Positions 9,128-10,439 of a stretch of DNA of 12,770 bases are shown here, one piece after another (position 1 is the stretch's first letter; each line of letters begins with the position of its first letter). Made by a program: the position numbers and the translations under genes. Source of the DNA: a virus; UHGV virus genome UHGV-0246522; one strand, 5' to 3'. Under the pieces are notes generated by a model, which saw nothing but the letters and a program-made list of their open reading frames with translations, was not told where the DNA came from and did no database searches.

Positions 9128-10077
9128 TCCACCGTAAATTGAATGCCTGATTTTGAGGTATATGATCCAACCTGATTCCGTGGTTCTCCTGAAGGTGTCG
9201 AATCTTGTGCTGGCGCTGCGTCAGTATTCATTGACATATACCGCTTAACGGCACTCCCCAATGATTCACCTTTTTTAACATCCAACCCCAATATCTGACC
9301 GCCATTACGCGATTGTCCAGGGTTGCCATTCGCGCTCATCCACTCGGCTTTAAACTCATTAAACTGCGCGTTTCGTCGCTCAAGGTTTGCCATTGCATCA
9401 AGCCATCTTGCTACCGTCTCAGGGTTATCCATGTCAGTTGGAGCACCCTGTCGAACGATCTCAACGTCTTTATCCGTTGCGGGGCCGGGAGGTAGGAATT
9501 TAAGAACCTGACTGTTAACAAGGGCATTTTGGCGGATGCGCAAATCACGCAATGTTGTATCGCTTCCGGTAAGTTTTGCGAACATGTTCTGTGCGTTACC
9601 GAACAAACCTGTCGTTGGTTTTTCTGCTCTGAACTGTTGAGCAAGCGCACTCATAGAATTGGCTGAGTTTGATGATGCTGTAGCATTGTTTACAGCCGTC
9701 TCGATGCCTTTTTCCATGTTTACTGACAGCTTAGGTGCTTCGCTAATCAACTGCTGAGCCTTTTCCTGTGCTTGCTGCATCTTAAACCCGAACTCTTGCT
9801 GATCCAGAGCCAAGCGTTGTGCTGCGATATTGTGCCCAGTCATTGCTGACTGATAGGAAAGGTTTTGCCCTCTCGCCTGAAGTGCTTCTCCAGCCTGATT
9901 GCTGCGGATTGTCTCTGCCAGTTTGCCTCGGTCAATTTCACGACCAGCCATCTTGTCCTGAACAGCAAACGCCTTTTCTGGTCCAAGCGCACCGAGAGAC
10001 ATAGTAGTCAGCATGTGTGATAGCTGCTCTGGATTCTGGATACCTGTCTGAATCATCCAGTCAGCATTCGCCCCCAC
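9124..10077 (-). CDS. C-terminal portion of an ejection protein (P22 gp20-like); reading frame interrupted upstream
   Basis: 317-aa ORF (GTG at 10077) ending in ATGA overlap with the gp16-like start. Upstream of about 10135 this frame becomes Cys/Trp-rich and non-protein-like, while the adjacent frame becomes protein-like, indicating a frameshift. Confidence 0.6.
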
Positions 10078-10082
10078 GCGAT

Positions 10083-10439
10083 TTAACCTGTCCTTGTTGT
10101 CAGTAATGAATTTACTGTAGGCTTCCGGTCCCTGGGAATAGCACCAGACGCACCTCCGCCAATAGCAGATTGCATTGCTGATGGTCTGTTGGCATTTGCC
10201 GCTGCAAGAGCCGCACTTTGCTGCGAAATCTGACTCATATTGTTGGCATATGTTTGCCCGGCGTTTGCCTGACCTTGCAGTGCGCCAAGACCAATATTTG
10301 CCAGATTCTGGTAGTTGTTCATCTGACCAGATATCCGCTGCTGTTGAGGATTTCTTTGGGTGTATACGCCGAGATCTTTAGCTGTCTTGGTTTGCCCAAA
10401 GCGCATTGCATAATCTTTCAGGGTTATGCGTTGTTCCAT
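10083..10439 (-). pseudogene. cro: cro'-'gp20 fusion: first 26 codons of lambda-type cro fused in frame to an internal segment of the gp20-like gene (deletion junction)
   Basis: Translation starts [26 protein letters not shown], identical to the lambda Cro N-terminus as I recall it, then switches at codon 27 (about nt 10360) to Q/N/A/G-rich sequence continuous with the gp20-like gene. The native cro RBS TAAGGAGG and PR lie upstream. Confidence 0.75.

Follow-up and report, generated by a model that had tools for sequence, protein, structure and literature searches.

The window analysed here, a 12,770-nucleotide (nt) stretch of the virus genome UHGV-0246522, carries on its minus strand two long open reading frames (ORFs) which abut in different frames and which a first-pass annotation had taken for a single gp20-like ejection protein gene broken by a frameshift. 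Comparison with intact relatives indicates that the frame switch, located at window positions 10136-10138, is very probably the seam of a 506-base-pair (bp) deletion in a P22-like prophage at argW, at which nt 600 of gp7 is joined to nt 402 of gp20. This seam, termed J3, would be one of three collinear seams, the others joining cro to gp10 (J1) and gp10 to gp7 (J2), and J1-J3 all lie within 232 bp.

The frame switch and the gp7/gp20 seam

The layout that was first described is borne out by the ORF list: the two minus-strand frames (10083-10439 and 9124-10077) do abut in different frames, the upstream one does meet a stop, a TAA, at 10083-10085, and the change of protein-like reading from one frame to the other is real and falls within the interval that had been proposed for it. 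When the downstream gp20 frame is extended upward it is preceded by the residues RRCVWCY; its nearest upstream in-frame stop is at 10378-10380, and the GTG at 10077 is the sole ATG, GTG or TTG codon after that stop. The homopolymer runs of the region are CCC at 10134-10136 and GGG at 10130-10132. In Pfam comparisons the upstream ORF matches Cro (residues 1-26, profile positions 1-25 of 59) and P22_gp7, and the downstream ORF matches Inj_translocase, the gp20 family, over profile positions 145-217 of 218 only, which is the last third of the model.

The DNA on the two sides of the switch can be assigned to two different genes. Window positions 10333-10137 are identical to nt 404-600 of gp7 from Escherichia coli A35 (197/197), and from 10138 downward the window is identical to A35 gp20 from nt 402 onward at all of the 129 nt checked (129/129); on account of these flanking identities the frame switch cannot be put down to chance. 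The overlap between the two matches consists of the dinucleotide TT (10138-10137) only, and identity to either parent ends right beyond it. The interval missing between them (positions 1708-2213 of the A35 locus L005) amounts to 506 bp, leaving a remainder of two on division by three, and comprises the last 30 codons of gp7, a 10-nt intergenic spacer and the first 134 codons of gp20. Since 506 is not divisible by three and genes 7 and 20 do not share a reading frame, the gp7 frame runs through 17 codons' length of gp20 sequence and then stops, and the gp20 frame stays open. Searches with megablast against phage records return matches in two pieces, with gp7 and gp20 annotated beneath them and phage DNA that is longer by ~0.5 kb. 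Against phage N7, for example, one piece (window 10343-10124) falls inside gp7 and the other (window 10138-9100) covers gp20 from ~nt 400, and in a three-way DNA alignment the window tracks gp7 up to GCTATT and gp20 from CCCAGGG on.

Inspection of protein alignments built from the gp7 and gp20 sequences of E. coli A35, phage N7, phage P22 and E. coli YA-1 leads to the same boundaries. Residues 37-101 of the upstream ORF correspond to gp7 Ser136-Ile200 and are invariant in all five aligned sequences, except for one Gln/Asn difference in N7, and past Ile200 the window diverges from the C-terminal 30 residues of gp7. The gp20 frame aligns from Ser135 to the C-terminus with 98% identity to A35 and N7; nothing in the window corresponds to gp20 residues 1-134, and the remnant has neither a start codon nor a ribosome-binding site of its own. 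Overall, the retained DNA is 98-100% identical to the gp7-gp20-gp16 cassette of A35. At J1 and J2, as at J3, the flanks are collinear and near-identical to those of intact relatives with a defined gap between them, and the sides of each seam share a short sequence and no long homology, as expected of deletion junctions.

The cro and gp10 seams and the chimeric frame

The upstream ORF is a composite of four pieces, namely Cro residues 1-26, 10 residues of gp10 read out of frame, gp7 residues 136-200 and 17 residues of gp20 read out of frame, followed by the TAA. No function is expected of this chimera. The order of the fragments is collinear with that in the intact relatives YA-1 and N7 (cro ... 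10, 26, 14, 7, 20, 16). A simpler two-part fusion of cro to gp7 was considered and dropped, as the 36 nt after cro belong to gene 10 and not to gp7. Both BLAST and Pfam over-extended the gp7 match at J2, because 12 of 15 positions around that seam are alike in the two parents. The coordinates of the fragments and seams, together with those of the surrounding genes, are collected in Table 1.

The TAA of the chimeric ORF lies 5 nt before the GTG at 10077, which is gp20 codon Val155, and the sequence AAGGACAGG occurs 9-13 nt upstream of this GTG. It is purely speculative that termination-reinitiation at the GTG might yield a C-terminal gp20 fragment after derepression of PR.

Table 1. Features in and around the scar, in window coordinates
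Feature	Position	Strand	Evidence
cro remnant, nt 1-77 (codons 1-26), lambda/HK544-type, own Shine-Dalgarno upstream	10363..10439	-	77/77 to HK544 cro; Pfam Cro
J1 (cro/gp10), 2-nt microhomology TA	10363..10364	-	cro nt 77 joined to gp10 nt 93
gene 10 fragment, 36 nt (gp10 nt 93-128), read out of frame	10329..10364	-	36/36 to E. coli YA-1 gp10 (L006 17905-17940)
J2 (gp10/gp7), 5-nt microhomology TATCT within 12/15 imperfect homology (CAGCAnnGGnTATCT)	10329..10333	-	gp10 nt 128 joined to gp7 nt 404
gp7 fragment, nt 404-600, codons Ser136-Ile200 in frame	10137..10333	-	197/197 to E. coli A35 gp7; protein alignment; Pfam P22_gp7
J3 (gp7/gp20), 2-nt microhomology TT	10137..10138	-	506-bp deletion relative to A35 (L005 1708-2213)
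gp20 remnant, codons 135-471 to the natural stop overlapping the gp16 start	9124..10138	-	98% protein identity to A35/N7 gp20; Pfam Inj_translocase; frame analysis
Upstream ORF, 118 residues, ATG start	10083..10439	-	chimera; TAA stop 10083-10085
Downstream ORF, 317 residues, GTG start	9124-10077	-	begins at gp20 Val155
gene 16, intact, 613 residues, third ejection protein	7286..9127	-	ORF list; Pfam Phage_P22_gp16 on the identical product in L004
PR promoter, TTGACT-17-GATAAT, lambda/HK544-type immunity region	10464..10492	-	promoter scan, 10/12 match
cI repressor, intact, 237 residues	10540..11253	+	234/236 identical to HK544 cI; Pfam HTH_3 + Peptidase_S24
argW tRNA-Arg(CCT)	777-851	+	prophage attachment end (777..2170)
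IntS-type tyrosine integrase	977-2170 (mechanical ORF; called as 385 residues in locus L004)	+	integrase domains

Origin of the three seams

To go by this one natural sequence, the joins probably formed at the microhomologies by RecA-independent illegitimate recombination or by template switching during replication. If three joins were placed at random, the chance of their sharing no fewer than 2, 5 and 2 nt, respectively, would be ~3e-4. The scar was probably produced by one multi-jump event rather than by three separate deletions: the stretches left between the seams measure only 36 and 197 nt and have not diverged, and the searches turned up no intermediates. A more specific version of this scenario, with three forward template switches in a single replication-associated event running from cro to gp10 to gp7 to gp20, can be given about an even chance. 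The long-distance template-switch, fork stalling and template switching (FoSTeS) and microhomology-mediated break-induced replication (MMBIR) models go back to work on stress-induced amplification in E. coli and on human copy-number variants. The scar resembles what they describe in its collinear jumps, in the microhomology at each join and in the short templated segments that were kept, and differs in that the mechanism would here be read from one natural sequence alone.

Alternatively, three successive and independent deletions might have accumulated during long-term erosion of the prophage. Remnants of prophages at argW are indeed common and varied, and every one of the seams looks like an ordinary microhomology deletion; this history is nonetheless the less likely one, as the two later deletions must then have begun within 36 and 197 nt of a prior seam, for which the rough chance is of the order of 1e-4 if endpoints are assumed to be uniform in ~4-7 kb of dispensable DNA. 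Further, the retained fragments are 100% identical to intact relatives and bear no sign of time having elapsed between events. Intermediates, such as carriers of J1 alone or J2 alone, were found neither in 5,426 complete E. coli genomes nor in the other collections scanned, although such absence of intermediates is weak evidence.

Several observations weigh against the scar being what it seems. Over the stretch compared, the window corresponds to just one MEGAHIT metagenome contig (ENA ERZ27308797 k141_24946), which in an exact-protein look-up is the sole contig on record to encode the 118-residue chimera, so that the structure rests on one assembly; the prophage side of this contig ends in gene N, and the far end of the prophage is thus unseen. 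J1, J2 and J3 are all absent from the complete E. coli genomes mentioned above, J3 and J2 from a collection with one genome per species (GTDB), and J3 and J1 from JGI metagenome contigs. The first of these points could be accommodated if the seams were the product of a chimeric molecule of DNA or of faulty assembly and the true prophage were intact or otherwise deleted. Such an artefact would account for a structure confined to one metagenome contig, with three seams spanning ~232 bp, about the length of one sequencing fragment, and with no seam recurring in any other database sequence. It is, however, improbable. The 2-5 nt shared at the seams are far below the k-mer of any assembler, which on the principle of de Bruijn assembly, rather than by test, makes a misjoin in the graph impossible; a rare chimeric fragment would have been pruned given an intact and well-covered path, whereas the contig runs straight through for 16 kb; and the fragments are collinear, in the same orientation and form a coherent remnant resembling an independent one in E. 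coli strain 81 (see below).

The lesion first proposed for this locus, a single-base insertion or deletion at the CCC/GGG runs within one gp20-like gene, arising either as a real mutation or as a homopolymer sequencing error, has next to nothing left to recommend it. The frame switch does fall at the CCC run, and the Logan contig ERR10498560_2870 (L010) has CCC reduced to CC at this very position of gp20. However, the upstream ORF is not part of a gp20-like gene, given its Pfam matches to Cro and P22_gp7 and the 197/197 identity of its DNA to gp7; gp20 codons 1-134 are absent, the CCC run of the window has its intact length, and what is missing is 506 bp. Addition or removal of one base cannot restore the gp20 gene, which excludes a homopolymer sequencing error as the cause. 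The candidate of a frameshifted gp20 pseudogene was accordingly rejected on two counts, as the two ORFs are not both gp20-like and no change of 1-2 nt brings back a full-length gp20. Alignment to intact gp20 homologues, which had been suggested as a means of locating the indel, reveals two different genes, each truncated, in line with what the first-pass annotation itself had named as grounds for giving up the idea. Its further suggestion, that an injection gene was decaying in a cryptic prophage, survives in part: injection genes of a defective prophage have decayed, but the genes concerned are gp7 as well as gp20 and the lesion is a deletion.

A look-up of the exact 317-residue ORF retrieved two further, unrelated contigs with different small gp20 lesions. 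In L010 (positions 400-460) an otherwise continuous gp20 carries the CCC-to-CC change, with the 17-codon out-of-frame tail and the 317-residue ORF both as in the window, and in L009 (ENA ERZ28812130 NODE_5572, positions 1030-1055, coverage 2.9x) a 2-nt (AG) deletion 20 nt further on creates TAC-TAA. Unlike the window, which has gp7 there, both of these gp20 pseudogenes retain the 5' third of gp20. The clustering of the lesions probably reflects ascertainment by the look-up rather than a mutational hotspot. A programmed ribosomal frameshift, or a functional two-gene arrangement with a separate gp20 C-terminal protein, might be entertained since the upstream stop is only 5 nt from the GTG at 10077, so that termination-reinitiation is conceivable, and since these two other contigs have gp20 broken within ~25 nt of the seam, but it is hardly credible: intact relatives have a continuous 471-residue gp20 and a separate gp7, the two frames of the window derive from different genes, the lesions differ in kind (506-bp, 1-nt and 2-nt deletions), and a look-up with the exact 317-residue sequence finds only lesions between Met128 and Val155.

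Prophage context, gene loss and related remnants

Of a P22-like (Lederbergvirus-type) prophage at argW, of the kind found in E. coli YA-1 and many other genomes, the window covers the integrase-proximal half. It starts with yfdC', the argW tRNA-Arg(CCT) and the IntS-type integrase, a layout which is the same in YA-1 and strain 81, and continues through tailspike, ant, arc, mnt, one ORF, sieA and gene 16 to the 'gp20, 'gp7', 'gp10' and cro' fragments, beyond which lie PR/OR/PRM, cI, two HK544-type ORFs, the PL region and the start of N. Pfam matches over the P22-type late and immI genes comprise Head_binding, P22_AR_N/C, Arc, Repressor_Mnt, SIEA, Phage_P22_gp16, Inj_translocase and P22_gp7. The canonical P22-type order (tailspike, ant, arc, mnt, sieA, 16, 20, 7) is present, and the DNA matches N7, P22 and CUS-3. 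The PR region shares 98.5% identity with the immunity region of HK544, which has PR annotated.

With N7 and YA-1 as rulers, simple arithmetic puts the losses at ~16.5 kb for J1, ~2.85-3.0 kb for J2 and 0.5 kb for J3, so that together ~20 kb, about half of a 39-kb genome, is gone. The missing genes are the rest of cro, those for replication, nin, Q, lysis, terminase, portal, scaffold, coat and gp4, most of gp10, gp26 and gp14. Between cro nt 77 and gp20 codon 135 nothing is left other than 36 nt of gp10 and 197 nt of gp7, and the corresponding interval of N7 holds the replication, Q, lysis, terminase, portal, scaffold, coat and head-completion genes, i.e., those of lytic growth. Retained are cI, immI (mnt/arc/ant), sieA, the tailspike, gp16 and the integrase.

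These losses have several likely consequences. The remnant should be non-inducible, being incapable of replication, lysis or particle formation. Cro would be dead, because its recognition helix is missing, and so would gp7 and gp20. The gp16 gene and the gp20 remnant would be cut off from the late promoter and be transcribed only from PR once cI is inactivated; likewise, the 118-residue chimera would be made from PR only when cI is absent or inactivated. The gp7, gp20 and gp16 proteins of P22 are injected with the DNA and build a trans-envelope conduit for it (PMC8402733, PMC8954989, PMC10461980), and SieA blocks this conduit in superinfecting relatives (PMC10461980). In the remnant, both lambda-type immunity and SieA exclusion should persist.

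Among known systems, the intact gp7-gp20-gp16 cassette (phages P22, N7, HK620 and CUS-3; the A35 and YA-1 prophages) shares with the window near-identical retained DNA, in the case of A35, and a complete gene 16. It differs in that the window has gp7 cut down to residues 136-200 and gp20 without residues 1-134 and its start signal, and would form no virion. A closer parallel is offered by E. coli strain 81 (NZ_CP088131.1, L003 12067-14211), whose argW remnant has cro nt ~35 joined to the middle of gene 16, with breakpoints corresponding to window 8585 and 10405. The two have in common the yfdC-argW-intS site, a P22-like late-gene remnant beside the integrase and a truncated cro joined to an ejection-protein gene. 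However, the breakpoints are others, the three seams with their 36- and 197-nt leftovers are found in the window, and cI is frameshifted in strain 81 and intact in the window. Since the cI regions are only ~97% identical, the two remnants do not appear to be recent copies of each other. Descent of the strain 81 remnant from the arrangement in the window by further deletion was considered as well; the cro breakpoint at nt ~35 and the ~3% divergence in cI make independence the likelier reading. Because strain 81 carries a different deletion at argW, decay by deletion from cro into an ejection gene at this site is recurrent, having arisen more than once. The strain 81 remnant additionally has an IS3-family insertion in its sieA region.

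Defective or cryptic prophages of E. coli at argW also include CPS-53/KplE1 of K-12, and the window resembles the argW remnants of other E. coli strains, its closest relatives, in having lost its head, lysis and replication genes by internal deletion. The laboratory lambda cI857 delta(cro-bioA) is an engineered defective prophage for recombineering whose right end lies in the host bio operon. There, too, a deletion from cro removes the replication, lysis and structural genes and cI, PR/OR and the PL side are kept, so that derepression does not kill by lysis. The deletion in the window differs from it in being natural, internal to the prophage and made up of three seams.

Other features of the window are given here for the record. 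In OR1, position 10475 (minus strand) is an A (TACCTCTAGCGGTGATA), the base also present in strain 81; lambda OR1 has a G there (TACCTCTGGCGGTGATA). Position 10463 (minus strand), right after the -10 hexamer, is an A where HK544 has a G. Two plus-strand ORFs after cI, at 11376-11657 (93 residues) and 11664-12215 (183 residues), occupy the position of rexA/rexB as in HK544; neither has a Pfam match, and they may constitute a prophage-expressed exclusion or defence cassette. The tailspike follows directly after the integrase (window 2170-2305), with no gtrABC or O-antigen acyltransferase module between them, unlike in YA-1, which has gtrABC there, and in strain 81, which has an acyltransferase. 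The tailspike itself (696 residues, 2305-4395, minus strand) has a Pfam match limited to the N-terminal head-binding domain (residues 1-113), and at the DNA level it resembles strain 81 over its N-terminal end only (window 4046-4402, 89%); because both matches are so restricted, its receptor-binding part appears to be a different, uncharacterised specificity module. A 193-residue ORF (5970-6551, plus strand), which overlaps the end of mnt and lies upstream of sieA, has no Pfam match and is kept in YA-1 and strain 81 as a hypothetical protein.

In practical terms, the locus should be annotated as a cro'-'gp10'-'gp7'-'gp20 deletion scar; it should not go down as a frameshifted gp20, nor should its sequence be corrected for a homopolymer error. 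It is a case of ordinary prophage decay and a new instance of a well-known class, that of prophages made defective by internal deletion, and it leaves current understanding unchallenged. All that sets it slightly apart is the triple microhomology scar, which could be of minor interest to students of illegitimate recombination. If the three seams did arise by template switches in a single event, they would represent a natural bacterial case of a multi-jump microhomology mechanism that has otherwise been deduced chiefly from amplification systems in the laboratory and structural variants in humans, and one event would have turned an inducible prophage into a harmless, immunity-conferring remnant. 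More generally, the locus offers a clean, undiverged snapshot of a P22-like prophage that would be disarmed yet keep cI immunity, SieA exclusion and immI.

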